The notes beneath the pieces were generated by a model. That model worked only from the letters and a program-made list of their open reading frames with translations. It did not search any database and had not been told where the DNA came from. A stretch of 64,000 nt of DNA, taken from contig JACQTO010000108.1 in the NCBI GenBank assembly GCA_016210745.1, forward strand, positions 9,563 through 73,562, written 5' to 3'. This stretch comes from Betaproteobacteria bacterium. GTDB taxonomy: Bacteria; Pseudomonadota; Gammaproteobacteria; Burkholderiales; SG8-39. Positions 1,901 through 33,079 of this stretch are shown one piece after another (the first letter of the stretch is position 1; the number at the start of each line of letters is the position of its first letter). The translations under genes and the position numbers were made by a program.

Positions 1901-4900
1901 TCATCGCTGCATCGCCGCCCACATCTTCTGCAGCCGCTTGGCCGACACCGGCACCGGGGTCTTGAGTTCCTGCGCGAATAGCTGCACGCGCAGCTCCTCC
2001 AGCATCCAGCCGAATTGACCGAGCCGCGGGTCGCGCTCGCCCGATTTCTGCCGCTTTGCGAGCTCTCGCTGCCACTGAACGAGCAAGGGCGAGATCTCGG
2101 CCTGGTTGCGCGCGTCGCGCGCCGGGTCGGTGCGCAGCTTGTCCAGGCGCAAACTCGCCGCCCTGAGGTAGCGCGGGAAATGCTGCAGCCGCTCGTAGGG
2201 CGTCTCGGCGATAAAGTGCTTGGGCAGCAGGCGCGCCAGGCCCTCGCGGATATCGCGGCACGCCTCGGGAAAGGCTTTTGCCGCCTGCTGCAGCTTTTTC
2301 TGCAGCGCTTGGTGTTCGCCGAGAATCGTGCCGGCGAGCCGGGCGAGCTCCTGCGCGATCAGCGTTACGCGGGCACGCCCCTCGTCGCGGCGGCGCGCGA
2401 ACTCGGCTGCGCTGCGCGGCCACGGTTCGGCGAGACAGGCGCGGTCGAATGCCGCGGCGAGCAGTTGTGATCTCAATTCGTTCGCGTCGCCAAAAGGGAT
2501 GAATGCGAGGGCAAGGGCCTGCAGCCCCGGCAGGTTTTTCTCGATGAACTTCGCCTGCTCTTTCAATTGCAGCATGAACAGGCGCCGCAGCCCCGCGCGG
2601 TGCAGCTCGTGCGCGCGCTCGGCTGAATCGAGCACTTCGAGCGTCACCGCGTCGTCGCCGTCTGTGAGCGCCGGATACCCGATCAAGGTCTGCGCCCCAC
2701 GGCGGATTTCCATCACTTCGGCCAGATCGCCAAAACTCCAGTCGGTGCAGCGTTCGCCCTTGGCTTCCGTCTTGGCCACGGCGGCGAAGCGCTCCCCGGC
2801 CGCGCCCCCAAGTTCTGCGCGCAATTGCGCCAGATTCCGGCTCATCGCGAGCTGGCGCCCATGCTCGTCGACGACGCGGAAGTTCAATGCCAGGTGCGCC
2901 GGCAGCAGCTCCGGCCGGAAGCCGTCCTGCGGCAACGCGAGGTTGAGTTCGCGGCGCGCGTAACGCGAGATAGCCTCCGCGAGCGTCGCTTCGCCCGGCT
3001 GCTCGGAGGCGAGAAACGCGTCGGCGAATTCGGCCGGAGGTCCGAGCCGATGGCGCAGCTTCTGCGGCAGCGACTTGGCGAGCAGCATCACTTTTTCGCG
3101 CCTCAGACCCGGCACCAGCCAATCGGCGAGCGCCGCGCTCACCTGGTTGAGCGCGATGAGCGGAACGGTCATGGTCACGCCGTCGCGTTGCCCGCCCGGG
3201 TCGTGGTGATATTCAAGCGCGAAGCTGCGCCCTGCCATTTCGATCTGATGCGGAAACTGCGCCGTGGTAATACCCGCGGCCTCGTGACGCATCAGGTCCT
3301 CGCGCCTGAGAAACAGGAGCTTCGGATTCGCCCTTTCGGCCTCCGCTCGCCAGGCGTCGAACGCCGCACCGTTGTGTATGCCTTCGGGAACCAAGCTGTC
3401 GTAAAAGGCATAGATCAGCTCGTCGTCCACCAACACGTCGGGCCGGCGCGACTTGTGCTCGAGCTGTTCGATCTCGCGCACGAGCTTGCGGTTGTGCTGA
3501 AAATACGGCGCGCGCGACTCCCAGTCGCCCTCGACCAGCGCCTGGCGGATGAAAATGCGGCGGGATTCCGCCGGGTCCATCGGACCGTAATGCACGCGCC
3601 GGTTCGTGTAGAGCGGCAGGCCGTAGAGCGTGCCGCGCTCGAAGGCGGCGACCTGCGCCGGCTTCTTCTCCCAGTGCGGGTCGTACTGGTGGCGCCGTAC
3701 CAGATGTTTCCCCACGTTTTCCAGCCACTCCGGTTCTATGGCGGCGATTGCACGGCCGTACAGACGCGTGGTCTCGGTGAGCTCGGCCGCCATGATCCAG
3801 CGCCCCGCCTTCTTCGCCACGCCCGATCCGGGATGCACCCAGAACTTGATGCCGCGGGCCCCGAGGTAGTTTCCTTCCTCGGTCTTCATGCCTATGTTTC
3901 CGAGCAGCCCCGTCAGAAGCGCGCGGTGGATCTGGACATAGTTGGCCGGGGTCTCGCCGCTGCGCCACCCCATCTCCGAAACCAGTTCCTTCAGTTGCGC
4001 ATGGACATCGCGCCACTCGCGCATGCGATTGAAGGACAGAAAATGATCGCGGCAGGCCTCGCGCAGTTTCCGGCTGGATTTCTTGTGCGCCAGCGCTTCC
4101 TCGAAAAACGCCCACAGCTTGAGGTAGGCGACGAAGTCGGAGCGCTCGTCGTCGAAGCGCTTCTGCGCCGTATCGGCGGCCTGCGCGCGATCGAGCGGGC
4201 GCTCGCGCGGATCCGGCACGGAGAGGGCCGCTGCGATGACCAGTGCTTCGGCGAGGCTCGCCTCGGATTTCGCTGCCAGAATCATGCGGCCGATGCGCGG
4301 ATCGACCGGAAGCCGCGCGAGCTGCTGACCTACTTCCGTCAATCGGCGTTCGCCATCGACCGCTCCCAGTTCGGTGAGCAGTGCATAGCCATCGGCGATC
4401 GCCTTCGGCTCCGGCGGGTCGATAAACGGAAAGTTTTCCACTTCGCCCAGCCGGAGCGATTTCATTCGCAGGATCACGCTCGCCAGCGATGAGCGCAGAA
4501 CTTCCGGGTCCATGAACGCCGGCCGCAGGTCGTAGTCGTCCTCGCCGTAGAGGCGGATGCACAGGCCCGCGGCCACCCTGCCGCAGCGCCCGGCGCGCTG
4601 TTTGGCCGCTGCTTGTGAGATCTTCTCCACCCGCAACTGCTCGACCTTATTGCGATAGCTGTAGCGCTTCACGCGCGCAAGCCCCGTGTCCACCACGAAG
4701 CGCACGCCCGGCACCGTGAGCGAGGTTTCCGCCACGTTGGTCGCGAGCACGATGCGCCGGCCCGGGTGCGGCCTGAACACGCGCTGCTGCTCTTCGGCCG
4801 AAAGCCGCGCGAACAACGGCAGGATCTCGGTTTGCGGCGGGTGGTGTTTTCGCAGCGTCTCGGCCGCCTCGCGGATCTCGCGCTCGCCCGGCAGGAACAC

Positions 4901-5656
4901 CAGCACGTCCCCGGGGCCGCGCAAGGCCAGCTCGTCCACCGCTTCGCTGATCGCGTCGTTGAGATCCGCTTCGTCCTCCTCCCTCGCATCGAGCGGCCTA
5001 TAACGCAGCTCCACCGGGTAAAGCCGTCCCGACACTTCGATCACTGGTGCGGCCCTTCCAGCGGGATCCGAGAAATGGTGCGAAAAGCGCTCGGCATCGA
5101 TGGTGGCCGAGGTGATGACGAGCTTCAGGTCCGGCCGCCTCGGCAGCAATCCCTTCAGATAGCCGAGCAGGAAATCGATGTTGAGGCTGCGTTCATGCGC
5201 CTCGTCGATGATCAGGGTGTCGTATTGCAGAAGCAGCGGATCGCCTTGCGTCTCGGCAAGCAGAATGCCGTCGGTCATCAGTTTCACGTACGAGCGCGGG
5301 CTGACGCGGTCGGTGAAACGGATTTTGTAGCCGACCGCGCCGCCCAGCTCGGCCTTCAGCTCCTGGGCGATGCGCGAGGCGGTCGCACGCGCCGCGATGC
5401 GTCGCGGCTGCGTGTGTCCGATAAAGCCGCCGACCCCGCGTCCCAGTTCAAGGAGAATTTTCGGCAACTGAGTGGTCTTGCCCGAGCCGGTCTCGCCGCA
5501 CACGATCACCACCGGGTGACAGGCGATCGCCGCTGCGATCTCGTCCCGTCTTGCGCAAATCGGAAGTTCGGGCGGGAATTCTGGACGCGGCAGCAAGCGG
5601 CGCCGCGCTTCGATTTCGGCAGGTGAAAAGCGTCTTGGCGTCTGGCTCGCGGACAT
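1901..5656 (-). CDS. hrpA: ATP-dependent RNA helicase HrpA (DEAH-box)
   Basis: The 1251-aa ORF carries GETGSGKTTQLP (Walker A), DEAH (IIDEAHERS), TNVAETSLT and QRAGRCGR motifs plus the long HrpA C-terminal region. Confidence 0.97.
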   Translation of the reverse strand: MSASQTPRRFSPAEIEARRRLLPRPEFPPELPICARRDEIAAAIACHPVVIVCGETGSGKTTQLPKILLELGRGVGGFIGHTQPRRIAARATASRIAQELKAELGGAVGYKIRFTDRVSPRSYVKLMTDGILLAETQGDPLLLQYDTLIIDEAHERSLNIDFLLGYLKGLLPRRPDLKLVITSATIDAERFSHHFSDPAGRAAPVIEVSGRLYPVELRYRPLDAREEDEADLNDAISEAVDELALRGPGDVLVFLPGEREIREAAETLRKHHPPQTEILPLFARLSAEEQQRVFRPHPGRRIVLATNVAETSLTVPGVRFVVDTGLARVKRYSYRNKVEQLRVEKISQAAAKQRAGRCGRVAAGLCIRLYGEDDYDLRPAFMDPEVLRSSLASVILRMKSLRLGEVENFPFIDPPEPKAIADGYALLTELGAVDGERRLTEVGQQLARLPVDPRIGRMILAAKSEASLAEALVIAAALSVPDPRERPLDRAQAADTAQKRFDDERSDFVAYLKLWAFFEEALAHKKSSRKLREACRDHFLSFNRMREWRDVHAQLKELVSEMGWRSGETPANYVQIHRALLTGLLGNIGMKTEEGNYLGARGIKFWVHPGSGVAKKAGRWIMAAELTETTRLYGRAIAAIEPEWLENVGKHLVRRHQYDPHWEKKPAQVAAFERGTLYGLPLYTNRRVHYGPMDPAESRRIFIRQALVEGDWESRAPYFQHNRKLVREIEQLEHKSRRPDVLVDDELIYAFYDSLVPEGIHNGAAFDAWRAEAERANPKLLFLRREDLMRHEAAGITTAQFPHQIEMAGRSFALEYHHDPGGQRDGVTMTVPLIALNQVSAALADWLVPGLRREKVMLLAKSLPQKLRHRLGPPAEFADAFLASEQPGEATLAEAISRYARRELNLALPQDGFRPELLPAHLALNFRVVDEHGRQLAMSRNLAQLRAELGGAAGERFAAVAKTEAKGERCTDWSFGDLAEVMEIRRGAQTLIGYPALTDGDDAVTLEVLDSAERAHELHRAGLRRLFMLQLKEQAKFIEKNLPGLQALALAFIPFGDANELRSQLLAAAFDRACLAEPWPRSAAEFARRRDEGRARVTLIAQELARLAGTILGEHQALQKKLQQAAKAFPEACRDIREGLARLLPKHFIAETPYERLQHFPRYLRAASLRLDKLRTDPARDARNQAEISPLLVQWQRELAKRQKSGERDPRLGQFGWMLEELRVQLFAQELKTPVPVSAKRLQKMWAAMQR

Positions 5657-5675
5657 TGGCGGCGCGAATGCTACC

Positions 5676-5790
5676 GAGCAAAATGGGGAAAAATGGGGTC
5701 AGAGTAACATTTCATCGTGGCGCGCCGATTTGGCGCGATGCGATTGGGAAATGTTACTCTGACCCCATTTTTCCTGACCCCATTTTGCTC
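5676..5790. repeat. R1 palindromic element, copy 2, with nested partial duplication of the arm tips
   Basis: The left side reads GAGCAAAATGGGGAAAAATGGGGTCAGAGTAACATTTC and the right side reads GAAATGTTACTCTGACCCCATTTTTCCTGACCCCATTTTGCTC. It lies between the hrpA start (5656) and the stop of the DUF2591 gene (5789-5791). Confidence 0.9.
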
Positions 5791-6139
5791 AGTCGATCTC
5801 GACCATCGCGCCGAGCTTCAGCGTAACCAGTGCCCGCATCGCCGCGACGAGCGGCGTCGGCCCGGCTGCAGCGACTTGGCGATCGATGTCGGCAGTCCAT
5901 TCCGCACCAGTCCGCTGCACGCTGATTCCGAACTTGTCGATCAGCGGGCCACCCTGCCTCCAGTCCGTCGTCGGCGTATAGGCAAACATGCGCGCGTCGG
6001 CAGTGCGGGTATAGACGCGCCTGTCCTTGTCTATCTCGAGGACGCGCCCCTCGGTATCCCGCATGTACAGGACATGGGTCGCCCTGGCAACCATGTAATC
6101 AAGCTCGATATTGCTGAGATCTGAAACCGACTTTTTCAT
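5789..6139 (-). CDS. DUF2591 / phage NinX-like protein
   Basis: The protein starts at MKKSVSDLSNIELDYMVARA. The motif YTPTTDWRQGGPLIDKFGI matches the NinX/DUF2591 pattern (LSDxELDxxVA ... STDWxQGGPII). Confidence 0.7.
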   Translation of the reverse strand: MKKSVSDLSNIELDYMVARATHVLYMRDTEGRVLEIDKDRRVYTRTADARMFAYTPTTDWRQGGPLIDKFGISVQRTGAEWTADIDRQVAAAGPTPLVAAMRALVTLKLGAMVEID

Positions 6140-6187
6140 CGTTTCGCGCGCAATCTGATACGACTTCCGCAATTGTAGGAGCTAAGT

Positions 6188-6330
6188 CGGACGAGCCGGA
6201 ACCGGGAAGGCTGTTTTTTTGCCTTTATTCGATCTCGTGTTTTCGTGCAGTTGCTTTGCAACTGCACGAAAACACGAGACCTAGAGAACACCAAAATCTT
6301 CACCGGAATTGCCAGCAATAAACTCGTGAG
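6188..6330 (+). repeat. R2 structured intergenic element, copy A
   Basis: It begins CGGACGAGCCGGAACC. A perfect 22-bp hairpin pairs 6233-6254 with 6258-6279 (TCTCGTGTTTTCGTGCAGTTGC ttt GCAACTGCACGAAAACACGAGA). The conserved 3' flank ends ..AAACTCGTGAG. Confidence 0.9.
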
Positions 6331-6380
6331 CCGCTATTGATGATCCCGTACCCGTCCCGCGCGGCCGATCCCTGCTTCCT

Positions 6381-7490
6381 TTACTGAGATTTTCCGCGCG
6401 CCTCGATCGTCCAGAAACCTTCAAGGCGTCCGCTACGATGCACGGCGAACCGGTCGTAAAGATTGACGGTGGTGTCGCAGTGACTGGGTATCAATTCGAT
6501 CCGATCGCCGAGCGCAAGATTCAGCTCGCCTGCGCTTGACCTGATGCTGCCGTGCTCGTCTCCCGCAAACTCGAATATCAAGTCTGATCGATTTTTCACC
6601 GACGGCAGTCCGCCGTCGCTGCTCGCTGATTTCCAGCCCACATCGACAATGGCCTTGCCCGCGGTGGTTTTGCTGATGACGCTGGCGAGTATAGTGAGCG
6701 GCTGTCCGAGCGGATGCTCGTCGCCCTCGCCCGCAAGGGCCACTTTGGCGTATGCGGTGTCCATGGTCACGTAGCTGCCGGGCTGCAGTTCGGTCAGCAT
6801 GCCAAGGCGGATGTCGATCGGGAAGCTTCCCGTTCCGCCTCCGGTTGCGACCGTACAATCCAGGCCCGCGGCGCGAACGCCGTCGCTGGCGAGGCGCAGC
6901 TTGCCCATCGCTTCGCGCACCAGCGCGTCGCGGTCGCTGAACGAGGCCACAGCCTGCAGTTTGCCCTGGTAGCCCTGCAAGCCGCGGAACCGAAGTCCTC
7001 GCGATCGCGCAATGACGGTTGCGAGTTCAGCCGCACGCGGACCCGGTGCAACTCCCGCGCGTGCCTGTCCCACGTCCACCTCGACCAGGACATCGATCTG
7101 CACGCCCGCCGAGCCGGCTGCTTGGGCAAGCTCGGCGATATTGGATTCGTCATCGACCACTACGGCCACCTTGGCCGACCTCGCCAGATCGACCAGCCTG
7201 CGAATCTTGAGTCCGCCCACCACCGGCGTAGTGACCAGCAGGTCGCGCACACCGCCTGCGGCCATCGCCTCGGCCTCTCCCAGCTTGGCACAGCAAAGCC
7301 CCACGGCGCCGCGCTCGACTTGAATTCGCCCGACGGCGCTGCACTTGTGCGCCTTCGCGTGGGGACGCAATTGCAGTCCTGCCGACGCGGCGCCGCGTTG
7401 GTAGCGGTCGATGTTGCGCTCGACCTGATCCAAATCGAGCAGCAGTGCCGGTGTATCGAGCTCGGCGAATTCTTCCTGTTTGGCGCTCAC
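6381..7490 (-). CDS. DSD1/D-threonine aldolase-family PLP enzyme (alanine-racemase-like N-domain)
   Basis: It has the RPHAKAHK PLP-lysine motif characteristic of DSD1/D-TA enzymes. The GTG start overlaps the stop of the downstream gene (GTGA). Confidence 0.8.
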   Translation of the reverse strand: MSAKQEEFAELDTPALLLDLDQVERNIDRYQRGAASAGLQLRPHAKAHKCSAVGRIQVERGAVGLCCAKLGEAEAMAAGGVRDLLVTTPVVGGLKIRRLVDLARSAKVAVVVDDESNIAELAQAAGSAGVQIDVLVEVDVGQARAGVAPGPRAAELATVIARSRGLRFRGLQGYQGKLQAVASFSDRDALVREAMGKLRLASDGVRAAGLDCTVATGGGTGSFPIDIRLGMLTELQPGSYVTMDTAYAKVALAGEGDEHPLGQPLTILASVISKTTAGKAIVDVGWKSASSDGGLPSVKNRSDLIFEFAGDEHGSIRSSAGELNLALGDRIELIPSHCDTTVNLYDRFAVHRSGRLEGFWTIEARGKSQ

Positions 7491-9268
7491 TGCATCACCT
7501 TCTGATAGACGATTCTTCCACCCACCATGGTCATTTCCGCTGCGATATCCTTCAGCGCATCTTGCTCGACGCTGAGCGGATCCGCGTCCAGTACGGCGAG
7601 GTCGGCCAGCTTGCCCGGCTCTATCGATCCCTTCCTGTTTTCATCGAAAGTGAGCCATGCGCCGTTGGCGGTGGCGCAGCGCAGCGCCTGCTCGCGCGTG
7701 AGCCGTTGATCCGGGGCGATCAAATCCTCGGTGTAGCGATTGCGGCGCGACACGACCTGCCACACGGGGTAGAACATGCTTACCGGCACGTTGTCTGTGG
7801 CGAGCGCCAGCTTCAGGCCGCGTTCGACCAACGAGCGAAACGGCGCGATTTCGTTCTCCCGCTCAGGTCCCAGACGCTGCTTGAGCAAGTGGCCCTCCTT
7901 GTATATATAGCGATTCGTATGTGAGGTCAGCACCAGGCCCATCTCCTCGATACGGTCTATGTCCCGTTCCGAAAGCGTGGAGATATGGCCATAAACCCAG
8001 CGCCTGCCGGTAAGCGGGACGACCCGGTGCACTTCGTAGAAAAGATCGACCATCGGCGGCGTACCGCCTACCACCCGGATGTCATTGCGCGCACACGCAA
8101 TCAACAATTCCTTGGCCCGCTCGCGCGGCAGCGCAGTCGCGTAATTGAAGCCCGCCCATCCCGTGTAGGGCAGGGCCGCCGCGCGCGCAAGATTATCGGG
8201 GGAGTGGGTGACGGTCACATAAATTCCGGTCATCTTGAGGAAATCGTCGCCGAGCGCCGGCTCCCCTAGCCAACCGCACCAGCCTTCGACAAAAGCGTTG
8301 AGGTCGACATCGCCCGCCGCGTGCCAGTTGGGGCTGAGCACGAGGGCAACGCGCATGGTCATTTCCTGGTTTCTCCGCAGATCCTTGTAGGCTCGAATCA
8401 GTTCGGTCGCAGCGCCATGTTCCTCGAACACGCTGGTGGTTCCGAAGGCATGATAGGCAGAAAACGAAGCCGGGAGCGTCCGCGCGCGGTCGGCGCGCGT
8501 GAATCCAGGCATGCCTCGCAGCAACGTCAATTCCACCACCGGCATGAAGGTGTCTTCGTAGAACACCCCCGTTGGCTCGCCCCTAGCGTCCTTTTCGATG
8601 GTGACCGATGCCGCGGGCGGAGCGGTGTTGCGGTCGATCCCCGCGGCCTCCAGCGCGCGGGTATTGGCAATCGAGACCAGCGGCAGCGTGTGGCGCCAGA
8701 AACCCCAGATCGGCCGGATATAGACCGGGTTGTCGGGCGCGGCCTCGTCCAATTCGTAACGGTTCGGGAATCGACGCTCTTTGAGGATGTCCGGCACGTC
8801 GAAATACGCCGGTGGATCGCCGATGGGCATAGTCACTATCCACTCGCCGGGCTTTGCGGCACGTGCGAGTCCGGAGATTCGCGCCTGGATGTCCGCAATC
8901 GAGCACACCCGGCCGAGGGAAGGGAAAACCGACTTCAGACCCTCACGGTCCACGTGCGCATGACCGTCGATCAAGCCCGGCAGGACCGACTTGCCTGCCA
9001 GATCGATCACCCGTGTTCCCGGACCGATCAGCGGTGCGATCTCGGCCGAAGAGCCAACCGCGGCAATGCGCTCCCCGCAGATCGCCACGGCGCGGGCCAC
9101 GGTGAAGGAATCGTCCACCGTGATGATTTTTCCGTTGGCAAGGACGATGTCGGCCTGGGCGTTCAAGATTTTTGCTTCGCGACTATGAAATAGTGCACGC
9201 CTGCCGGCCTGCGGATGCAGCACGATACTCCCCGAGGCCCGAGGCGGCAATCCATGACCGACATCCAT
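7487..9268 (-). CDS. Amidohydrolase-family (Amidohydro_3, D-aminoacylase-like) protein
   Basis: Motifs include ADIVLANGKIITVDD near the N-terminus, GLIDGHAHVD as the metal-binding motif, and a C-terminal TDNVP...GSIEPGKLADLAVLD. I chose the ATG at 9268 because it is preceded by GGGA. The longest ORF starts at GTG 9283. Confidence 0.8.
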   Translation of the reverse strand: MDVGHGLPPRASGSIVLHPQAGRRALFHSREAKILNAQADIVLANGKIITVDDSFTVARAVAICGERIAAVGSSAEIAPLIGPGTRVIDLAGKSVLPGLIDGHAHVDREGLKSVFPSLGRVCSIADIQARISGLARAAKPGEWIVTMPIGDPPAYFDVPDILKERRFPNRYELDEAAPDNPVYIRPIWGFWRHTLPLVSIANTRALEAAGIDRNTAPPAASVTIEKDARGEPTGVFYEDTFMPVVELTLLRGMPGFTRADRARTLPASFSAYHAFGTTSVFEEHGAATELIRAYKDLRRNQEMTMRVALVLSPNWHAAGDVDLNAFVEGWCGWLGEPALGDDFLKMTGIYVTVTHSPDNLARAAALPYTGWAGFNYATALPRERAKELLIACARNDIRVVGGTPPMVDLFYEVHRVVPLTGRRWVYGHISTLSERDIDRIEEMGLVLTSHTNRYIYKEGHLLKQRLGPERENEIAPFRSLVERGLKLALATDNVPVSMFYPVWQVVSRRNRYTEDLIAPDQRLTREQALRCATANGAWLTFDENRKGSIEPGKLADLAVLDADPLSVEQDALKDIAAEMTMVGGRIVYQKVMQ

Positions 9269-9523
9269 GACCGATCCCGTCACGGCTGACGCACTACAAA
9301 ACCCCGGCTCTCAGGGGTCTTTTCCCGTGCCTTCGCCCCACACTGCGGGATAGGCTATTATCAGCGGCAATTCGGAGGTTTGCGCTTGCGGGGGAGGACT
9401 CGCAATACCGGTCGTGCAAACAGGTACGGTATTCTTCTTCTGCTCCGGCGACACGCTGAATTCTCGGGTGGAATACTGCCAAGCTCCAACCCTTTGACCA
9501 ACAAAAATGCAAAAACGGAAGGA

Positions 9524-11647
9524 ATGATCAGAACCCCCACAGTGACGACCAGCATTGAGCAGCAGGTGCCTGCCGAAGCCGACTTGGTGCGCAGCCTCAG
9601 GGCGCAGGCCAAGATCCGCGCCATTTTCGGCATTCCGATCATGGCCTCAGCGCTCGTCTACCTATCCTATACCACCGGCGTCAACGAGTGGGTACAGGGC
9701 GTTACCGCCGCGAACACGATTTTTATCGTCACCATGCTGATCCTGGCTGCGCGGCTGCGGCCATTCTCTGCCAATCAGCTCCTATTCGCCACGGCAATCC
9801 TCGATCCGCTGCTGCTGTCGGCCTGGGTGTCGATGGTCGGCGAGGTGGGCAGCCTCGCCATCGGCTTCTACCTGTTCACGATCCTTGGCTTCGGGCTGCG
9901 CACCGGCACCCGCCTTATGGGGGTATGCCAGATCGGCGCCCTAATCGGCTTTTCGGCGGTGATGGTTTTGCAGCCATACTGGCGCCAGCACCACATAGTG
10001 TGGCTTTCGTTCTTGTTCACGCTTATCTTGGTGCCTCTGTATGCCGCGGTGCTGGTGAGAAAGCTGCATGAAGCGCGCGGGATTGCCGAGCGGGAAAGCC
10101 AGGCAAAGTCGCAACTGCTAGCCAAGGTAAGCCATGAATTGCGCACGCCCTTGTCGGGCATCGTCGCCGCGGCGCAACTGCTGTCGGCGGAAACCGAGGA
10201 TCCCCGTGTCACCAACCGGGCCGAGACCATCATGGGTCTCTCACGGGATTTGCTGCGCGAGATCAACGACCTTTTGGATCAGGCGAAATACGAGGCGCGG
10301 GCGCTGGTGCTGGAATCCACGCTATTCGATCTGCATGAGCAAATGGATCGGCTTTGCTTGAGCCTGGAACCGACTGCGGTCAACAAAGGATTGGCTTTTT
10401 CAGTCAAGCTGGACCCGCGTCTGAAGGGCCGGGTCCAGGGCGATTCCCATTACTTGAGCAAGGTGCTGATAAACCTGGCCGGCAATGCAGTCAAGTTCAC
10501 AGACCATGGCAAGGTCGAGATCGGCATGACGCTCCTGGAAGAACGCGACGATCGTTACCGCGTGCGATTCAGCGTTCAGGATACCGGCATCGGAATCCCC
10601 AAGGAAATGCACGAAAAGATCTTCGAGCCCTTCTTTCAGGCTGACCGTTCGACGGCGCGCAAGTACGGCGGCACGGGCCTGGGAATGACGATAGCAAAGG
10701 AAATCGTCAACCTGATGGGGGGCCAGATTCGACTGGAGAGCGAGCCGGGAACGGGAAGCCTTTTCTATTTCGACCTCGCCTTCCCGCGCGTCAACACGCC
10801 CCAGCGAAGCATGCAACAGACGGCCGCGCAAATCGTCTACGGCAAGCGCGTTCTGATCGTAGACGACAATGCGACGAATTTATCGTTGATTGCGGAAATG
10901 CTGGCGCGCGACCGTCACGAGGTCGTAGCCGCCAAGAGCGGCGTCGAGGCGCTGGAGGTGCTGACTCGTCGCGAATTCGACGTGATTTTTCTCGACTTCA
11001 ATATGGGCGGCATGGACGGAACCAAAGTCCTGCAGGTCTACCGGTTCGGGAAGTTGAAGCCTGCGCCGGTGTTTTTCCTGACTGCGGATGTGACCGCGGC
11101 TACCGCCGCGCGGCTCGGCAACGCCGGGGCTGTCGGTATTCTGCACAAACCCATCACTATGGATGGACTGCGTCAGGCTATCGGCCAGGTGTGCGGCTCC
11201 GGTGCAGAATCGGTTGCCGCCCCGCTCACCACCCCGTCGAAGGTCCCCGCGCCGGCGCCGTCACAGGTGACGCTCGCGCCGGTGCCGACACAGTATGTCG
11301 ACTACGGCGTGATAGACGGCTTGGTGTCGATGAGCGAACGGCCGCAATTCCTGGCCGAGGTGCTGAGCAGCGCCGTGACCGACATCGAACGCAACTGCAA
11401 TGAATTGATGGGCGCATTGGCGGCACGGGATTCCGAACGCGTGCGCGATACCGCACACGCGCTGAAGGGGATATGCACGACCGTGGGCGCGACCCGGCTC
11501 GAGACGTTGGCGAACAGGCTGGCGCAGAGCACCGGCGAGGAACTGACCCAGGCCGGTGCGCGCTTGAGAACTGACGTCGCCGATACCAGTCGTCAAAGCA
11601 TTGCCGCCATACGCAGCATCCTGTTGAGCCGGGCAGTCAACGGGTAG
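9524..11647 (+). CDS. RpfC-like hybrid sensor histidine kinase (multi-TM sensor, HisKA, HATPase, REC, HPt)
   Basis: ATG at 9524 follows GGAAGGA. The N-terminus has about 5 TM segments and no large periplasmic domain. The H-box is SHELRTPL and the N/G boxes are NLAGNAVKFT and GTGLGM. The REC domain shows RVLIVDDNATN...DVIFLDFNMGGMDG...LTAD, and the C-terminal HPt shows AHALKGICTTVGA. Confidence 0.9.
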   Translation: MIRTPTVTTSIEQQVPAEADLVRSLRAQAKIRAIFGIPIMASALVYLSYTTGVNEWVQGVTAANTIFIVTMLILAARLRPFSANQLLFATAILDPLLLSAWVSMVGEVGSLAIGFYLFTILGFGLRTGTRLMGVCQIGALIGFSAVMVLQPYWRQHHIVWLSFLFTLILVPLYAAVLVRKLHEARGIAERESQAKSQLLAKVSHELRTPLSGIVAAAQLLSAETEDPRVTNRAETIMGLSRDLLREINDLLDQAKYEARALVLESTLFDLHEQMDRLCLSLEPTAVNKGLAFSVKLDPRLKGRVQGDSHYLSKVLINLAGNAVKFTDHGKVEIGMTLLEERDDRYRVRFSVQDTGIGIPKEMHEKIFEPFFQADRSTARKYGGTGLGMTIAKEIVNLMGGQIRLESEPGTGSLFYFDLAFPRVNTPQRSMQQTAAQIVYGKRVLIVDDNATNLSLIAEMLARDRHEVVAAKSGVEALEVLTRREFDVIFLDFNMGGMDGTKVLQVYRFGKLKPAPVFFLTADVTAATAARLGNAGAVGILHKPITMDGLRQAIGQVCGSGAESVAAPLTTPSKVPAPAPSQVTLAPVPTQYVDYGVIDGLVSMSERPQFLAEVLSSAVTDIERNCNELMGALAARDSERVRDTAHALKGICTTVGATRLETLANRLAQSTGEELTQAGARLRTDVADTSRQSIAAIRSILLSRAVNG

Positions 11648-12530
11648 CGAGCGGTTGATAGTCCCGTTGCAGGCGAATCAGCATGTCCATGACCTTCAGG
11701 TCCGCCTCTCCCAGATCCATCGCCGCTTCTACCCACTCGCCAACGACCGTCAATAGTTCGCTATAGTCGAGCGGCGCCACGCGGTACCGGCCGCGCTGGA
11801 GCATCAGCCGCGCGTTGCGATGTTTGCTGTGGTTCGCGATGAACCGCTCCACGGCCAGTGCGCCTTCCCCTCTCGGGCATATTTCATCGACAATGCCCTT
11901 TTCCTTCAGTTCGGCCGCCGAATAGATCCGCGCATCGGTCATCATGCGTTCGGCCTCGTATACGCCCACCCGCCGCGCCAACAGGCTCATGCCTCCGGTG
12001 CACGGAAACAAGCCGAACAGGATCTCGGGGAAGCCGAACTCGCTCTGTTCCTCCGCGATCAGGTAGTCGGCGCTCAGTGCCGCCTCGAATCCCCCGCCCA
12101 ACGCCCGCCCCTGGACCAATGCTATGGTGGTCGCCTGGTTGTTCAGGCAGGTCGCCCACTCGTACATGATGTCCAGGCATAGCCGTGAATACTGATACAG
12201 GGCGTCCTTGTCCTTGCGCTCGATACAGGCGTGGAAGTGCCGCAGATCTCCCCCCAGGCCGAAGTAATCGGGATGGCCGGACTTGAGCACCGCATACTGG
12301 ACCGGCAGCAACTGGCCTTCGTCAACCCAGCGTCCGGCTCTGCCCTTTATGGCGTGGAGCACGTCGCGCAGGCCATGCAACAGCGACAGAGAGAAATTCT
12401 GACATCCCCCATCGGATGGCCGCTTCATCGTGATCCAAAGCACGTTGGATCCTCCACGATCGAGTTCCGCAGTAACACGATCGGAGATGTTCGGCTGTGA
12501 CAACGGAATTTGAAAATCTAAGGCTCCCAT
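11637..12530 (-). CDS. RpfF-like DSF synthase (crotonase-superfamily enoyl-CoA hydratase/thioesterase)
   Basis: As I recall Xanthomonas RpfF, several segments align with it. FGLGGDLRHF matches FNLGGDLALF. IALVQGRALGGGFEAALSADYLIAEE..FGFPEILFGLFP matches IALVQGNALGGGFEAALSCHTIIAEE..MGLPEVLFDLFP. EWVEAAMDLGEADLKVMDMLIRLQ matches EIWVDTAMQLGEKSLRTMDRLVRAQ. Confidence 0.85.
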   Translation of the reverse strand: MGALDFQIPLSQPNISDRVTAELDRGGSNVLWITMKRPSDGGCQNFSLSLLHGLRDVLHAIKGRAGRWVDEGQLLPVQYAVLKSGHPDYFGLGGDLRHFHACIERKDKDALYQYSRLCLDIMYEWATCLNNQATTIALVQGRALGGGFEAALSADYLIAEEQSEFGFPEILFGLFPCTGGMSLLARRVGVYEAERMMTDARIYSAAELKEKGIVDEICPRGEGALAVERFIANHSKHRNARLMLQRGRYRVAPLDYSELLTVVGEWVEAAMDLGEADLKVMDMLIRLQRDYQPLATR

Positions 12531-12548
12531 GGTTTTCCCCCTTTTCTA

Positions 12549-13859
12549 TCAACTGGACGACACCGAAACGGATGGACGCTTCGCGGGCATTTCGCGGTGT
12601 TTCGAAATGACCAACGCCACATTGGTACCACCGAAACCTGACGAAAAAGACATTGCCCGTTCGATCCGCCGATCGAAGATCGGGCTATTGGCCACGTGAT
12701 TCAGTTCGCACAGGGGATCGATTTCATCCAGGTGTGCCGTGGCGGGAAGAAACGACTCCGCGATCGCGAGGACAGTAACCACAAATTCTAGCGCGCTGGC
12801 CGCGCCAAGCAGGTGGCCATGGACAGACTTGGTCGAGCTTACCGGTACGGTCCTGCCGGCATCGCCGAAGGCGAGGTTTATTGCCTGCGCCTCGACGGTA
12901 TCCCCGCCGCGAGTTGCCGTTCCGTGAGCATTGATGTAATGGATATCTGCGGGTCCAATGCCCGCATCCTCGAGCGCCAGACGCATGGCCTTGGCCTCTC
13001 CCTCGAGTTTAGGCGACGCGATGTGATAGCCGTCGGAAGCGACTCCGTAACCAGAAAGCACGGCGTAGCAGGCGGCTCCGCGCCGCTGAGCATGCTCGGC
13101 CGATTCGAGCACTACAAAAGCAGCACCCTCGCCGAGAACCAGCCCTGCTCGATCCTTTGAAAAGGGCCTGCAGCTGCGGCCGACCTCGGACTCGTCCGGC
13201 ATGGCAAGCGCCCGGGTCGCGTCGAACCCCCAGAACATGGCAGCGGTAAGCGGAGCCTCTGCACCGCCGGCTACGGCGACGTCCAGGTACCCGTCGCGAA
13301 TGGCGCGCAGGGCCTCGCCGATAGCGGTCCCTGAGGAGGCGCAGGCTTCGCTGTGGGTCAATACCGGCCCGAGTATCTTGTGGCGTATCGAGATCTGAGC
13401 AGCGCCGGCGTTGTGCATCATCGACATCATCGTAAAAGGCCGCGCATTCTTATGTTCGATCAATATTTGCTCGTACGACGCCTGTTCGGTTTCCGCGCCG
13501 CCCCGGACCGTGCCATAGAAGAGGCCCGCACGCTGCTCGTAGCACGAAAAGTCCCCGAGTCCCGCGTCGGTCACTGCCTGGCGCGCGGCAATGATGGCCA
13601 TCTGCGGACACCGGTCCAAAAACGGCAGTTCGAGCTTGGTGAATTCATTGGCAAAGCTTCGAGGAACCACCCCGGCTGGAAACGTCTTTTGCAGGTAGCG
13701 TGGCTCACACAAGCGAATGCCGGAGCGCGCGGTTGAAAGATAGGAGATCAGTTCCCCGATGTCACACCCGATCGGGGATATGACACCCAGGCCGGTGATC
13801 ACGACATCCCGCTTATCGGACATGGGCGCTGGCCCCGGCTCGATACGGGCCGGGCTCAC
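12549..13859 (-). CDS. Beta-ketoacyl-ACP synthase (KAS I/II type)
   Basis: A Cys-His-His triad is present in SEACASSGTA, NAHGTATRGGD and KSVHGHLLGAAS. The longest ORF starts at GTG 13859, overlapping the ACP stop as GTGA. An alternative ATG at 13823 gives MSDKRDVVITGLG. Confidence 0.9.
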   Translation of the reverse strand: MSPARIEPGPAPMSDKRDVVITGLGVISPIGCDIGELISYLSTARSGIRLCEPRYLQKTFPAGVVPRSFANEFTKLELPFLDRCPQMAIIAARQAVTDAGLGDFSCYEQRAGLFYGTVRGGAETEQASYEQILIEHKNARPFTMMSMMHNAGAAQISIRHKILGPVLTHSEACASSGTAIGEALRAIRDGYLDVAVAGGAEAPLTAAMFWGFDATRALAMPDESEVGRSCRPFSKDRAGLVLGEGAAFVVLESAEHAQRRGAACYAVLSGYGVASDGYHIASPKLEGEAKAMRLALEDAGIGPADIHYINAHGTATRGGDTVEAQAINLAFGDAGRTVPVSSTKSVHGHLLGAASALEFVVTVLAIAESFLPATAHLDEIDPLCELNHVANSPIFDRRIERAMSFSSGFGGTNVALVISKHREMPAKRPSVSVSSS

Positions 13860-14104
13860 GCGCTGCCGGCCAGATTTCTGGATATGACCGCTGCCACCTC
13901 GCCCAGGGACGGGTTGGGCGGGAAAGACAAGTCAACGAGCTTTGTCCCAAGCTCCGCCTCGAGGTCAAGCATGATTTCGAGGACGTGGAGCGAATCGACC
14001 CCGAGATCGCCGAGCCTGGCGCCATCGCCAAGTTGGGCGACATCGAGCCCGAAACGATCGTGTAAGCTGGATTGGATCTTGGTGAGAATAGCGGCGTTGT
14101 CCAT
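13856..14104 (-). CDS. Acyl carrier protein
   Basis: It is 82 aa with an LGVDSLHVLEIM motif (DSL phosphopantetheine serine). It is the first gene of the ACP-KAS-crotonase operon. Confidence 0.9.
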   Translation of the reverse strand: MDNAAILTKIQSSLHDRFGLDVAQLGDGARLGDLGVDSLHVLEIMLDLEAELGTKLVDLSFPPNPSLGEVAAVISRNLAGSA

Positions 14105-14424
14105 CGTGACCTAACCCCCTGCAATTAGCGCATACGATTCGTTTGGTCCCAAGGCGAGGAATCGGCGCCATGACGCCATCCGCGCCCGGGAGCCGGAAGT
14201 TTAGCGGAGATTGGCTTTGACTGGGGAGGCGTTGGTCGAGGCGCCCGCTCATACGGAGGCGCCCCGTTCCCGAGCAAATCAGCCATGTATTACGCGCCGG
14301 GGCACGCGGTCATCATGCGGCCCGGGACGGGAATAGGCTGCTCGGTTTTTGCCGACAAGGCGCAGGATGCTATGCTTCCTATTCAGATGTCATAACACCA
14401 ACACCAATCAGCGGCGGACCAGGG

Positions 14425-15474
14425 ATGTACCCAATACTCGTCGACAAGAAAATACTCGTGGTTGATGACCAGGCGACGATCCGCAAAATTGTCAACGGCG
14501 TGCTGGTCCACAGCAGCGCTCAGGTGCTCGAGGCTAGCTGCGCCGACGAAGCAATTCGGATAGCTCGCGAACAGTGTATCGATGCATTTCTGCTCGACAT
14601 ACAGTTGCAGGGCACCAACGGCATCGAACTGTGCCGCACGCTCAGGGGGATGGATAACTACCGCAACACTCCCATCATGTTCGTCACCGCCATGGACGAA
14701 AGGCGGACTCTGCAACAGGCATTGGAAGCGGGCGGCGACGACTTCATTCACAAGCCGATCGATCCCGTCATTCTCAGGGCCCGGCTGAGCAATCTGTTTC
14801 AAAAAACGGAATACCTTCGACAGATCGAGCTGATGAGTCTTTCGCTGCACCGTTACGTGTCGCCGAGAACGGAGGAAATGGCCCGGATCTACGCCAGGAC
14901 AGGTGTCCTTCCCCCGCCCAGAAAACGCGAGGTTTCTGTCTTGTTTACCGACGTGCGCGACTTCACGGAATTGAGCCAGCAACTGGAGCCGGACGCCCTG
15001 TTCCACTCACTCAGCGAGCACCTCGCCACTCAGGTAGGTCTGGTCTATGCCCACGGAGGATACGTCGACAAATTCGCCGGCGACGGCATGATGGCCGTTT
15101 TCGATGGCGAAGACATGATCTTGAGAGGCTGCCTGTGCGCGCTGGACATCCTGGATTATTCCAAGAACCGGCTCGAGTCTCGGGGCACGAAAATCAATCA
15201 GCTTGGCATGGGGATCCATACGGGATCCGCCATGATCGGCAATCTCGGCTCCTCCGAACACCTGGATTACACCCTTGTGGGAGGTACCGTGAATCTGGCT
15301 GCTCGCCTTTGCGGCGTGGCAGACCGACTTTCCATCATCGCGTCGCGGAGCGTTCGCGACGCCCTCGCGGACGAACCTCGTGTTCGATTCTCGGATGAGC
15401 GGCGGGCGACCATGCGCGGATTCGAGGAACCGATATTGATCTACGACCTCAGCCGAGGGATCCCGTCCGCCTGA
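14425..15474 (+). CDS. Response regulator (REC) fused to a class III adenylate/guanylate cyclase
   Basis: The REC domain shows ILVVDDQATIR...DAFLLDIQL. The cyclase domain shows VLFTDVRDFT, DKFAGDGMMAVF, GIHTGSAMIGNLGS and DYTLVGGTVNLAARL. Confidence 0.9.
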   Translation: MYPILVDKKILVVDDQATIRKIVNGVLVHSSAQVLEASCADEAIRIAREQCIDAFLLDIQLQGTNGIELCRTLRGMDNYRNTPIMFVTAMDERRTLQQALEAGGDDFIHKPIDPVILRARLSNLFQKTEYLRQIELMSLSLHRYVSPRTEEMARIYARTGVLPPPRKREVSVLFTDVRDFTELSQQLEPDALFHSLSEHLATQVGLVYAHGGYVDKFAGDGMMAVFDGEDMILRGCLCALDILDYSKNRLESRGTKINQLGMGIHTGSAMIGNLGSSEHLDYTLVGGTVNLAARLCGVADRLSIIASRSVRDALADEPRVRFSDERRATMRGFEEPILIYDLSRGIPSA

Positions 15475-15597
15475 GCACTGGACCGAAGCCGGCCTCGTAT
15501 GCCCCTGGGCGCTTGACCCCCGAAGCCGTAAGACGGCAAATCCCCGGCAACTCTGCTGTAAAATAATAGCGGTCACCAAACCCGGAGGAGGATAACA

Positions 15598-15978
15598 ATG
15601 TTCAAGCGCATCGACCACGTGGAACTGATCCCACGCGACCTGGAAAAGACCATCGATTTCTACACCAAGGTGCTGGGCTTCAGCGTGAAGTCACGCCAAA
15701 AAAAGGAAGCCGGGCCGATGAAGGAGATCGTGTATCTGACGCTCGGCGACACCATGATGGAGCTGTTGGATATGAAAGATGCGCCGGACATAGCTCCCGA
15801 CACCCGGCGCATCGGCTATCGCATGATTGCGCTCGAGGTGGAGGATATGGATAAGACCTTCGACTACCTGAAGACCAAGGGCATTCTTCCCTCGGTAGCG
15901 CCGGTTACCCTGGGCACTTCGAAGCGCGCCGAGATCCTGGATCCGAACGGCAACTCTATCGAACTGAGGCAATGGTAG
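15598..15978 (+). CDS. VOC (glyoxalase/bleomycin-resistance/dioxygenase) family protein
   Basis: It is 126 aa with a strong GGAGGAGG Shine-Dalgarno sequence. MFKRIDHVELIPRDLEKTIDFYTKVLGF is a typical VOC beta-alpha-beta-beta-beta start. Confidence 0.8.
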   Translation: MFKRIDHVELIPRDLEKTIDFYTKVLGFSVKSRQKKEAGPMKEIVYLTLGDTMMELLDMKDAPDIAPDTRRIGYRMIALEVEDMDKTFDYLKTKGILPSVAPVTLGTSKRAEILDPNGNSIELRQW

Positions 15979-16010
15979 CGAAGAGCTATTGCCGCTGACT
16001 TCCTCGCGCG

Positions 16011-16973
16011 CTAAGCCGCCATTTCCTCGGGTTCGCCCGGCCGAACCAGCGCAAGCGTTACGGGCGGATGGCGTTTGAGCGCGCGAGCGTCGCCTGCCGT
16101 GGCGAGCTTGTGCGCGAACTGGACGTTCTTCGCAAGTTCCTCGAAGTAGCGATGCTCCCCGCCGAAGTGGCGCGCAGCGTGGTGATGGGCCCCATCGAAG
16201 TCAGTCTCCAAGCGCCGAATGGCCGATTCGTAGAATCGCGGCGTCTTCAACACCAGGTCCTCGCCGGACTCGAAAACCACCTGTTCTTCGCCATTGGGCA
16301 GGCGCTTGCGCGCGATGCCGGCGGCAACGAATTCGGGATACAGTCGATCGCGGCATTTCTCCAGGTAACAGCGGTCCGACATCTGCGCGATGATGTCGGC
16401 CGAGCCGAGAATGCTGCCCAGAAGCCTGTGGCTCGAAGTCGGGAGCGTAATATCCGCGACTGGAGTCTCAAAGCCGGTAAAGTGGATCAATTGGGCGGCG
16501 ATGTCGGCCATTTCGCCCATCCCTATAGTCGGCAGATAAGCCCTCACGAACTGCGCCCCCCGAGAGACGTGAGTCAGCGTCAGCTCGCTGCCGTTCCTAT
16601 GCTGTTTTTCCCCGAGCGTGCGCACATAGCCGCAGTCGTGAAATAGCGCGGTGACGATCCCGAGCCGGAAGAGCGGCGCGTCGAGGGATTCGATTCCAAC
16701 CACCCCGCGGTTGTACCCATCGATCAGCCGCGCCATGGCGAGCGTCACATCGAGCACATGCTGGATGTCGTGGTAGGGGGTATCGCAGGCGAAATAGCCC
16801 GGACGGTCACCGCAGTAAAGACCGGCCATGTCCTGGAATGCTCGATCGATCTGGCCGGCGGCTTCATTGGGGTAGAGTCGCGTGAAGATCCGGTCAACCG
16901 CCGCGTTGACGACGGCCGGGTCCGTGGTCTTGATATCGTTCGATACGTCGTATTCGCTGCGGCGCTGTTTCAA
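16011..16973 (-). CDS. HD-domain metal-dependent phosphohydrolase
   Basis: HD signatures are YHDIQHVLDV and ALFHDCGY. A TTG start is preceded by GAAGAGGGG. Confidence 0.65.
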   Translation of the reverse strand: MKQRRSEYDVSNDIKTTDPAVVNAAVDRIFTRLYPNEAAGQIDRAFQDMAGLYCGDRPGYFACDTPYHDIQHVLDVTLAMARLIDGYNRGVVGIESLDAPLFRLGIVTALFHDCGYVRTLGEKQHRNGSELTLTHVSRGAQFVRAYLPTIGMGEMADIAAQLIHFTGFETPVADITLPTSSHRLLGSILGSADIIAQMSDRCYLEKCRDRLYPEFVAAGIARKRLPNGEEQVVFESGEDLVLKTPRFYESAIRRLETDFDGAHHHAARHFGGEHRYFEELAKNVQFAHKLATAGDARALKRHPPVTLALVRPGEPEEMAA

Positions 16974-21260: not shown

Positions 21261-21935
21261 ATGACCTGCATGGACGACGCGATCAAGCAGAAGATATTGC
21301 ACCTCTACCCGGCGTTCGGTTCGATGACGGCGGCGGCGCTGGACCGGGTTCTCGACGAAGCGTTGGTGCGCACGGTTCCGGCCGGAACCGTGATGTTCGA
21401 CGAGTCCAATCCCTGCCAGGCCTTTCCGATGCTGATCGAGGGCACGATAAGCGTGTCGAAGGTGGCCGCCAATGGGCGTGAGCTGCAGCTCTACCGGGTC
21501 GTGCCGGGCGAATCGTGCCTGCTCACATCGAGCTGCCTGCTCGGCAATGTCCCCTACTCGGCGCGCGGCACCGCCGAGTCGGAGGTGACAGTGGTTGCGC
21601 TGCCGCCCGATCTGTTCAACCGGCTGGTGGCCGAGTACGAACCCTTTCGCACCTATATTTTCTCGTTGTTCGCCGAACGCATTTCCGATCTGATGCAGCT
21701 GGTGGAAGCAGTCGCCTTTCACCGCCTCGACCAGCGTCTGGCGGCGCTGCTGCTCGGCAAGGGGCGTACGATCCAGACCACCCACCAACAGCTCGCCGAA
21801 GAACTGGGCAGCGTGCGCGAAATCGTGAGCCGTCTGCTCAAGAGCTTCGCCGAGCAGGGACTCGTTGCGCTCTCGCGGGAGAGAATCGAAGTTCTGAATC
21901 CGCAGGAACTGCGCCGCATAGCCGGCGCAACCTGA
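21261..21935 (+). CDS. Crp/Fnr-family transcriptional regulator
   Basis: It has a cNMP-binding-like beta-barrel followed by a C-terminal HTH (THQQLAEELGSVREIVSRLLKSF). Confidence 0.85.
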   Translation: MTCMDDAIKQKILHLYPAFGSMTAAALDRVLDEALVRTVPAGTVMFDESNPCQAFPMLIEGTISVSKVAANGRELQLYRVVPGESCLLTSSCLLGNVPYSARGTAESEVTVVALPPDLFNRLVAEYEPFRTYIFSLFAERISDLMQLVEAVAFHRLDQRLAALLLGKGRTIQTTHQQLAEELGSVREIVSRLLKSFAEQGLVALSRERIEVLNPQELRRIAGAT

Positions 21936-30709: not shown

Positions 30710-30712
30710 GCC

Positions 30713-33067: not shown

Positions 33068-33079
33068 GAGGACCCATTC

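Follow-up and report, generated by a model that had tools for sequence, protein, structure and literature searches.

A predicted fatty-acid signaling locus in which an RpfF-like crotonase is linked to its own ketosynthase and acyl carrier protein and adjoins a putative adenylate cyclase

Signals belonging to the DSF (diffusible signal factor) family govern virulence, biofilm formation, and antibiotic tolerance. In current models, the DSF synthase skims intermediates from housekeeping fatty-acid synthesis, and perception of the signal ends in the turnover of cyclic di-GMP (c-di-GMP) (PMC4504480). RpfF-type enzymes act on 3-hydroxyacyl–acyl carrier protein (ACP) substrates, first by dehydration and then by hydrolysis (PMC4504480), and are promiscuous thioesterases whose side products are recycled by RpfB (PMC4504480 and PMC5941067). 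Reviews distinguish two core architectures for perception, RpfC/RpfG and RpfR (PMC4504480). Here, we describe a locus at positions 9524-15474 of a 64,000-nt stretch of betaproteobacterial DNA from contig JACQTO010000108.1 (the window; all coordinates are those of the whole stretch), which probably represents a self-contained DSF-family cell-cell signaling module that would combine signal synthesis, sensing, and an output through cyclic AMP (cAMP). We have not found a module of this type described: in the literature searched, which comprised papers available without subscription, neither a DSF synthase linked to a ketosynthase and ACP nor a cyclase as the output of a DSF sensor is reported.

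The locus shares much with the Rpf system of Xanthomonas campestris. Both contain a synthase of the crotonase fold in which the two glutamates and the pocket residues are the same, and a multi-pass membrane hybrid kinase of the HisKA-HATPase-REC-Hpt type, with homology that is detectable even in the membrane region, and in both the synthase and sensor genes are convergent (Xanthomonas layout according to PMC4504480). In addition, related modules in Lysobacterales occupy the same genomic neighborhood as the Xanthomonas system, together with rpfG- and rpfB-like genes. However, the synthase of the window is approximately 40% identical to Xanthomonas RpfF, carries the motif FPCTGGM instead of FPGMGAY, and scores below the cut-off of the RpfF equivalog model. 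Directly upstream of the synthase gene, where Xanthomonas has rpfB (PMC4504480), the window has a dedicated ketosynthase gene, accompanied by a gene for a dedicated ACP. RpfG is replaced in the window by a receiver (REC) domain fused to a predicted adenylate cyclase, and there is no RpfB gene nearby.

Two further described systems are comparable in part. The Burkholderia and Cronobacter RpfF enzymes (BCAM0581 type), which work with RpfR (PAS-GGDEF-EAL), are likewise RpfF-superfamily synthases that share the NF006452 family model with the crotonase of the window (140 bits to Cronobacter RpfF); they too occur in Betaproteobacteria, with the synthase gene convergent with the sensor gene, and a GGDEF-EAL output is found in some relatives of our locus (Herbaspirillum and Undibacterium). 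In contrast to RpfR, which is a soluble PAS receptor, the sensor described here is a membrane kinase of the RpfC type, and the GGDEF-EAL proteins of its relatives are REC-controlled rather than ligand-binding. No ketosynthase or ACP gene is linked to the synthase gene in the BCAM0581 type (PMC4504480), and Cronobacter RpfF groups with canonical RpfF, outside the ketosynthase-linked clade described below. Pseudomonas aeruginosa DspI, the synthase of cis-2-decenoic acid, is also a crotonase implicated in a cis-2-enoic acid signal. However, DspI (5wyb) matches the crotonase of the window with 54 bits, as generic enoyl-CoA hydratases do, and does not belong to its family; its gene belongs to a cluster for fatty-acid metabolism that includes no sensor kinase (PMC4504480).

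The locus comprises the following features.

9524..11647, + strand: RpfC-like hybrid sensor histidine kinase, 707 aa (Pfam HisKA, HATPase_c, Response_reg, and Hpt; hydropathy; motif positions)
9614..10051, + strand: membrane-embedded input region of the kinase, residues 31-176, the predicted signal-binding part (Kyte-Doolittle peaks; alignment with RpfC)
11637..12530, - strand: RpfF-like crotonase, 297 aa, predicted signal synthase with dehydratase and thioesterase activity (Pfam ECH_1, NCBIfam, PDB matches, tree)
12549..13823, - strand: FabF-like elongating ketosynthase, 424 aa, or 436 aa from the alternative GTG at 13859 (Pfam ketoacyl-synt N- and C-terminal domains)
13856..14104, - strand: ACP, 82 aa (Pfam PP-binding; Ser38 in a DSL motif)
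14105..14424, no strand: intergenic DNA that separates the ACP operon from the divergent REC-cyclase gene, with presumed promoters (sequence)
14425..15474, + strand: response regulator fused to a class IIIb nucleotide cyclase, 349 aa (Pfam Response_reg and Guanylate_cyc)

An earlier sequence-only reading of the window had proposed a HisKA-HATPase-REC-HPt kinase facing a convergent operon of ACP, ketosynthase, and crotonase genes, and Pfam searches confirm all five genes of the locus at these coordinates with the domains expected of them. By homolog length, the ATG at 9524 is the correct start of the kinase gene, because homologs measure 701-712 aa and this codon yields 707 aa, compared with 755 aa from an upstream TTG. 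The ketosynthase most likely starts at the ATG at 13823, 32 nt past the ACP stop codon, rather than at the GTG at 13859, because its homologs begin 4-6 residues ahead of the VVITGLG motif; the 4-nt overlap between the ACP and ketosynthase genes is therefore doubtful. A spacer of 18 nt that contains AAGGGGGAA lies between the ketosynthase stop codon and the crotonase ATG, and the crotonase and kinase genes overlap by 11 nt at their 3′ ends. The ACP, ketosynthase, and crotonase genes thus form a tight operon, as proposed, but the translational coupling of the overlap type that was part of the same proposal is unproven, given the 18-nt spacer and the probable start at 13823. The divergent intergenic region (14105-14424) contains neither a σ70-like consensus promoter nor repeats. 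Scans of the two intergenic regions for promoters, terminators, and repeats yielded nothing above the expectation from shuffled sequences, and neither a palindromic operator nor a Crp-like site was detected in them. A check for mobile elements and RNA features gave no Rfam match near the locus and a single, distant tRNA.

The assignment of the synthase rests on several lines of comparison. The crotonase matches Pfam ECH_1 with 99.5 bits and ECH_2 with 49 bits, and its best PDB matches, the only solved structures that are closely related, are Xanthomonas RpfF (3m6m, 153 bits; 7zq7, 148 bits) and the Cronobacter enzyme (6dgn/5fus, 140-142 bits). It passes the broad RpfF-like NCBIfam model NF006452 (280 bits; cut-off, 177), which assigns 388 bits to the experimentally studied Cronobacter RpfF and 362 bits to a canonical-type Lysobacter RpfF and is effectively a model of the RpfF superfamily. 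In a neighbor-joining tree with 100 bootstrap replicates, rooted on Escherichia coli PaaF, the ketosynthase-linked crotonases are monophyletic (100/100) and sister to canonical RpfF together with Cronobacter RpfF (92/100). In place of DspI and BCAM0581, bit scores and the Cronobacter RpfF served as proxies. By these comparisons, the crotonase is an RpfF-superfamily enzyme from a sister clade of RpfF, not an RpfF ortholog. An identity as a β-oxidation hydratase, an outcome that would have spoken against the earlier reading, was considered and rejected, since ordinary enoyl-CoA hydratases in the PDB score at most 60 bits against 140-153 bits for the RpfF structures, and both NF006452 and the tree agree with this separation.

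At the level of individual residues, the catalytic glutamates E149 (in GGGFEAALS) and E169 (in FPEILF) align with both glutamates of Xanthomonas RpfF (3m6m), as the sequence-only reading had recognized. Together with G94 and G146, they correspond to E141, E161, G86, and G138 of X. campestris RpfF, which are cited as critical residues of that enzyme (PMC9040811). Counted over 81 members of the ketosynthase-linked clade, E149, E169, and G94 are invariant (81/81) and 80 carry G146. Conservation in the clade extends to the RpfF pocket residues L144, G145, G146, G93, W266, and L284. The clade has a signature of its own at residues 175-181, FPCTGGM in the window and always FPCTG(G/A)M among the members, where canonical RpfF has FPGMGAY; within it, C177 and T178 stand beside the second catalytic glutamate. 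Four residues, C102, C177, C218, and H234, are invariant in all 81 ketosynthase-linked crotonases and occur in no canonical RpfF compared. They might serve as an acyl acceptor, as a metal or redox site, or as a docking surface.

The predicted sensor resembles RpfC. Kyte-Doolittle hydropathy places approximately six hydrophobic segments, joined by short loops, at kinase residues 31-176 and shows no periplasmic domain; the latter had been anticipated, whereas the earlier estimate of about five transmembrane segments was slightly too low. The phosphorelay residues are present in the HisKA (H204), REC (D491), and Hpt (H645) domains. In BLASTP, the kinase is 32% identical over 608 aa to a canonical-type RpfC encoded between rpfG and rpfF in a Lysobacter genome (Lysobacter sp. 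CFH 32150, locus L029). The alignment runs from residue 67 via the transmembrane helices to the Hpt domain, and residues 67-185 match the RpfC transmembrane region, with shared motifs such as GxGLRxGxR, PYW, and VPLY. This L029 protein, and not RpfC of X. campestris, is the reference for homology in the input region. The kinase is thus RpfC-like not only in its cytoplasmic domains but also in the membrane input region, which supports the earlier assignment. A second kinase of L029, which belongs to a ketosynthase-linked set, is 47% identical to the kinase of the window.

For the ketosynthase, the top PDB match is FabF (3-oxoacyl-ACP synthase II; 5sxo, 282 bits), with an end-to-end alignment in which the active-site motifs coincide. 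Because Cys173, His312, His349, Lys344, and the gating Phe409 are all intact (436-aa numbering), the enzyme is by sequence a condensing enzyme of the elongating kind rather than a decarboxylating variant. Its scores stay below the cut-offs of the NCBIfam FabF models (373 bits against 387 for NF005589; 371 against 494 for TIGR03150), and the ACP reaches only 18-32 bits on the AcpP models, which have cut-offs of 66-106. Since both proteins score under these cut-offs, and the ACP far under them, neither is, on this measure, the housekeeping copy. Free-standing ACP, ketosynthase, and crotonase genes also stand together in the polyketide β-branching cassette, which consists of a donor ACP, a decarboxylating ketosynthase, a 3-hydroxy-3-methylglutaryl (HMG) synthase, and the enoyl-CoA hydratase-like proteins ECH1 and ECH2. 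Unlike that cassette, the locus has no HMG synthase, a single crotonase that is RpfF-like, a ketosynthase with its catalytic cysteine, and no assembly line nearby. An HMG-CoA synthase, a second ECH, and a ketosynthase with a Cys-to-Ser exchange are absent from the window locus and are not conserved in the 83 related loci introduced below.

The arrangement recurs widely. A protein search returned about 2,000 relatives, many of them labeled "DSF synthase" by JGI, and a scan of one genome per species found a relative in 377 genomes. The window proteins were mapped onto 83 related, non-redundant loci from Burkholderiales and Lysobacterales. The best 80 loci of the scan all come from these two orders, namely from Burkholderiales (RIFCSP betaproteobacterial metagenome-assembled genomes, Sterolibacteriaceae, Herbaspirillum, Noviherbaspirillum, Undibacterium, and Herminiimonas) and Lysobacterales (Rudaea, Dokdonella, Lysobacter, Luteimonas, Arenimonas, Thermomonas, and Pseudoxanthomonas). 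The ketosynthase gene lies immediately upstream of the crotonase gene in 78 of the 79 loci that are long enough to show it. Of 72 loci, 68 have a convergent RpfC-like kinase gene immediately downstream, and three of the others have it upstream. All but one of 60 full-length loci (59 of 60) have an ACP gene no more than 7 kb away; in 32 it precedes the ketosynthase on the upstream side, and in 27 it lies past the kinase. Identity to the window proteins co-varies across loci (crotonase versus ketosynthase, r=0.91; crotonase versus kinase, r=0.91). The arrangement recurs in about 80 independent genomes and is far beyond chance. The survey thus bears out the dedicated ACP and ketosynthase that the sequence-only reading had seen beside the synthase. 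They are not peculiar to this locus; they are the defining trait of a large family, one that includes RpfG and RpfB in many Lysobacterales.

Clustering of open reading frames (ORFs) over 81 loci revealed no conserved reductase, dehydratase, transacylase, phosphopantetheinyl transferase, or other biosynthetic gene; the remaining high-count clusters are shadow ORFs or genes of the rpf synteny. Since the crotonase, ketosynthase, ACP, and kinase are the only genes conserved across the 83 loci, the triad does not belong to a larger pathway for a polyketide or lipid, an outcome that would have undermined a signaling role. The genes flanking the module in the window were not found in the related loci L001-L086, and an amidohydrolase gene and a D-serine dehydratase-like gene in the flanks are common only to the nearest relatives, L089 and L090. 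The G+C content of the signaling locus (10000-16000) is 58-61%, against 63-66% over most of the window and approximately 62% for the window as a whole, and sequences from Burkholderiales and Lysobacterales are interleaved in the crotonase tree. The lower G+C content, the flanks common to the closest relatives only, and the interleaved tree are compatible with horizontal transfer of the module. Among the carriers are the cultured strains Undibacterium arcticum KCTC 42986, Noviherbaspirillum suwonense DSM 26001, Dokdonella immobilis CGMCC 1.7659, Lysobacter sp. Root690, and Luteimonas notoginsengisoli KCTC 42211, which makes the family experimentally accessible.

In Lysobacterales, the module is embedded in classical rpf surroundings, with an rpfG-like HD-GYP gene, an rpfB-like ligase gene, and genes for PilZ, aconitase, lysS, prfB, and recJ as neighbors. 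In Rudaea (L005/L006), the order is recJ, prfB, lysS, REC-HD-GYP, ACP, ketosynthase, crotonase, convergent kinase, PilZ, AMP-ligase, and aconitase, which we take to match the Xanthomonas rpfA/rpfB ... rpfG/lysS/prfB/recJ neighborhood. In L029, positions 1778-13356 hold two sets back to back between lysS and the rpfB and aconitase genes: lysS is followed by an rpfG-like gene, an rpfC-like gene, and a convergent canonical-type rpfF gene, and then by a second set of ketosynthase, crotonase 2, convergent kinase 2, and ACP genes, after which come the rpfB-like gene and aconitase. This locus apparently represents an in situ pair of paralogous fatty-acid signaling systems that share one RpfG and one RpfB. 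Because two synthase/sensor pairs lie next to each other there, the ketosynthase-linked pair arguably handles a second, distinct signal.

The window locus itself contains no RpfG-type REC-HD-GYP protein, in agreement with the earlier reading; the adjacent regulator is instead a REC domain fused to a class III cyclase. The REC domain has the residues D13, D14, D58, T88, and K110 and resembles the REC domain of PleD (93 bits). The cyclase domain has the metal-binding pair D176/D220, the substrate pair K216/T283, and the transition-state pair N290/R294 with class III spacing (K+4 to D, T+7 to N, and N+4 to R), and aligns end to end with its top PDB match, P. aeruginosa CyaB (3r5g), a class IIIb adenylate cyclase with the same Asp, Lys/Thr, and Asn/Arg pairs. 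The roles of these residues in class III cyclases are established, and the combination of Lys and Thr points to an ATP-specific class IIIb enzyme. The protein is therefore predicted to be a phosphorylation-controlled adenylate cyclase of class IIIb. PleD is likewise a REC-fused second-messenger enzyme; in contrast to CyaB and PleD, the cyclase described here is the apparent output of a DSF-type sensor. Its catalytic residues are kept in the homologs of L001, L088, and L089.

The REC-cyclase gene adjoins the module in all five members of the sub-clade, namely the window and its four closest relatives, L089, L007, L088, and L008 (crotonase identity to the window of 90, 80, 76, and 72%, respectively; by tblastn, L001 and L002 are duplicates of L008). 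Two gene orders occur: the REC-cyclase gene either diverges from the ACP gene or lies downstream of the kinase gene. Across the 60 full-length loci, the regulators beside the core are HD-GYP proteins in 34, GGDEF-EAL proteins in four, and REC-cyclases in three, with none within 7 kb in 19. Only the cyclase output is limited to the lineage of the window; the core is widespread.

Two other genes near the cyclase gene can be mentioned here. A Crp/Fnr-family regulator (cNMP_binding and HTH_Crp_2) is encoded at 21261-21935 (+ strand), 6 kb from the cyclase gene, and is a possible cAMP receptor. Beside the cyclase gene, at 16011-16973 (- strand), lies a gene for a 320-aa protein with sub-threshold matches to Pfam HD (E=0.048) and to the NCBIfam Npun_R2479 HD family (43 bits). 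It was considered as a substitute for RpfG and rejected, having no REC domain, no GYP motif, and nothing beyond this sub-threshold HD match. It was not found beside the related modules L001-L086, and a function as a nucleotide phosphodiesterase would be a guess.

The observed gene content, intact catalytic residues, family placement, and conserved architecture suggest the following mechanism. The dedicated ACP would be loaded with malonate, and the FabF-like ketosynthase would condense malonyl-ACP with an acyl chain from fatty-acid synthesis, as the last condensation. The resulting 3-oxoacyl-ACP would be reduced by a housekeeping FabG-type reductase, borrowed because the module encodes no reductase of its own. 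The RpfF-like crotonase would then dehydrate 3-hydroxyacyl-ACP to cis-2-enoyl-ACP and hydrolyze it, freeing a diffusible 2-enoic acid. In this scheme, the ketosynthase/ACP pair would fix the chain length and insulate the acyl-ACP pool for membrane lipids from the synthase/thioesterase. By homology, the signal would be detected in the membrane by the RpfC-like kinase, followed by a His-Asp-His phosphorelay through H204, D491, and H645. Conserved adjacency and the catalytic residues suggest that the phosphoryl group would then pass to D58 of the adjacent REC-cyclase, leading to the production of cAMP. In sister lineages, the same core would act through an HD-GYP or GGDEF-EAL regulator, with an output through c-di-GMP. 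This is the most economical model of synthesis, each step of which we infer; the chemistry of the signal and the "private ACP pool" of the earlier reading are predictions of the same kind.

Several points weigh against this mechanism. The product is a prediction for every member of the family. The crotonase falls short of the narrow RpfF equivalog model NF053515 (186 bits against a cut-off of 550). C177, T178, and M181 stand where RpfF has G169, M170, and Y173, and C102, C218, and H234 are further clade-specific invariants, so that the chemistry may be different. The module encodes no ketoreductase, malonyl transferase, or phosphopantetheinyl transferase, and these steps would lean on housekeeping enzymes. 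On the output side, the specificity for ATP over GTP depends on two residues only, and we infer the pairing of kinase and cyclase from adjacency alone. No regulator lies within 7 kb in the 19 loci mentioned above, and the REC domains of the three output types share 28-32% identity, no more than unrelated REC domains do. Beside the module, there is no conserved cAMP receptor, and the Crp-family protein was not found by tblastn in the related loci L001-L086.

Of the alternatives to a cis-2-enoic acid signal with a cAMP output, the likeliest keeps the signaling architecture and changes the product. The absence of a reductase and the invariant Cys177 leave room for different chemistry, in which the crotonase would act mainly as a thioesterase or decarboxylase on 3-oxoacyl-ACP from the private carrier. 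The product would be a 3-oxo or 3-hydroxy acid, or a methyl ketone if decarboxylation followed, and would represent a new class of signal sensed by the RpfC-like kinase. Crotonase-fold decarboxylases and hydrolases exist, none of the 83 loci encodes a ketoreductase, the crotonases form a separate clade with full bootstrap support, and their six invariants near the active site (C177, T178, M181, C102, C218, and H234) occur in no canonical RpfF. Coexistence with canonical RpfF and RpfC in L029 likewise implies a signal that can be told apart. However, both glutamates for hydration and dehydration are kept, as are the RpfF pocket residues listed above, and the borrowing of FabG is common in type II systems. 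An RpfB-type ligase is also kept in many loci, which fits free fatty-acid products. We regard a non-enoic product as unlikely.

A second alternative accepts the DSF-type core and assigns the REC-cyclase to another pathway, with the partner regulator of the kinase encoded elsewhere. Distant partners do occur, as shown by the 19 of 60 full loci that have no regulator within 7 kb, and the cyclase REC domain is 28-31% identical to RpfG-type REC domains, no more than unrelated REC domains are. The low identity across the output types suggests independent recruitments, and a plain swap of output domains on one conserved REC domain is ruled out by it. On the other hand, a hybrid kinase that ends in an Hpt domain needs a separate REC acceptor, and the REC-cyclase is adjacent in all five sub-clade members (72-100% crotonase identity) in either gene order, although the other flanking genes differ. 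The sister clades hold another REC-fused second-messenger enzyme in the same neighborhood. An unrelated cyclase appears quite improbable.

Finally, that the ACP, ketosynthase, and crotonase make a cell-bound lipid or small polyketide, with the two-component system sensing, for example, membrane or lipid status and simply regulating or accompanying the operon, is very unlikely: such genes do co-occur in β-branching cassettes, the crotonase weakly matches polyketide-associated ECH models in NCBIfam (65-68 bits), and the module encodes no transcription factor, but the hallmark enzymes of those cassettes (HMG-CoA synthase, second ECH, and Cys-to-Ser ketosynthase) are missing and Cys173 is kept, no additional biosynthetic genes are conserved, no other crotonase comes nearly as close to that of the window as RpfF does, RpfC and the kinase have homologous input domains, and the module takes the rpfF-rpfC position in the classical rpf synteny with rpfG and rpfB, with the synthase and sensor genes convergent as in Xanthomonas (PMC4504480).

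If the locus is indeed a DSF-family signaling module, the clade as a whole could be given a broader interpretation, which we put forward tentatively. The ketosynthase/ACP-linked clade may constitute a third core DSF architecture, with a private carrier, a distinct signal molecule, and swappable outputs, and would include the first case of fatty-acid quorum sensing that feeds into cAMP. Its signal may differ from the DSF/BDSF series, which derives from fatty-acid synthesis, by the length of the chain or by the group carried at C3, possibly by way of Cys177. A synthase family that nearly always travels with its own ketosynthase and ACP would point to undiscovered signal structures, and this company would explain both how the chain length is set and how a promiscuous thioesterase/dehydratase is kept off the lipid pool. 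A sensor core that accepts HD-GYP, GGDEF-EAL, or adenylate cyclase outputs would be a system in which to study the rewiring of signaling pathways, and the ACP, ketosynthase, and crotonase would offer a compact three-gene cassette for the production of defined 2-enoic acids.

Elsewhere in the window, a molybdenum hydroxylase cluster (CoxS/L/M-like) with XdhC, a MoxR-type AAA ATPase, CoxE, and CoxG spans 28908-38152, and a malonyl-CoA decarboxylase gene (34929-36275) is embedded in it between the AAA and CoxE genes. A 1,576-aa ORF at 56363-61093 (- strand) has atypical G+C by codon position (GC1 0.52) and no Pfam domain apart from a weak E1_FCCH match; it adjoins a PilW-like type IV pilus gene (61571-62686), and its product may be a PilY1-like tip protein. 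At the start of the window, 484-1806 (- strand) encodes a PccH-like cytochrome c and a DUF1847 protein, and a gene resembling NinX of phage P22 (5789-6172, - strand) stands alone between helicase and D-serine dehydratase-like genes.

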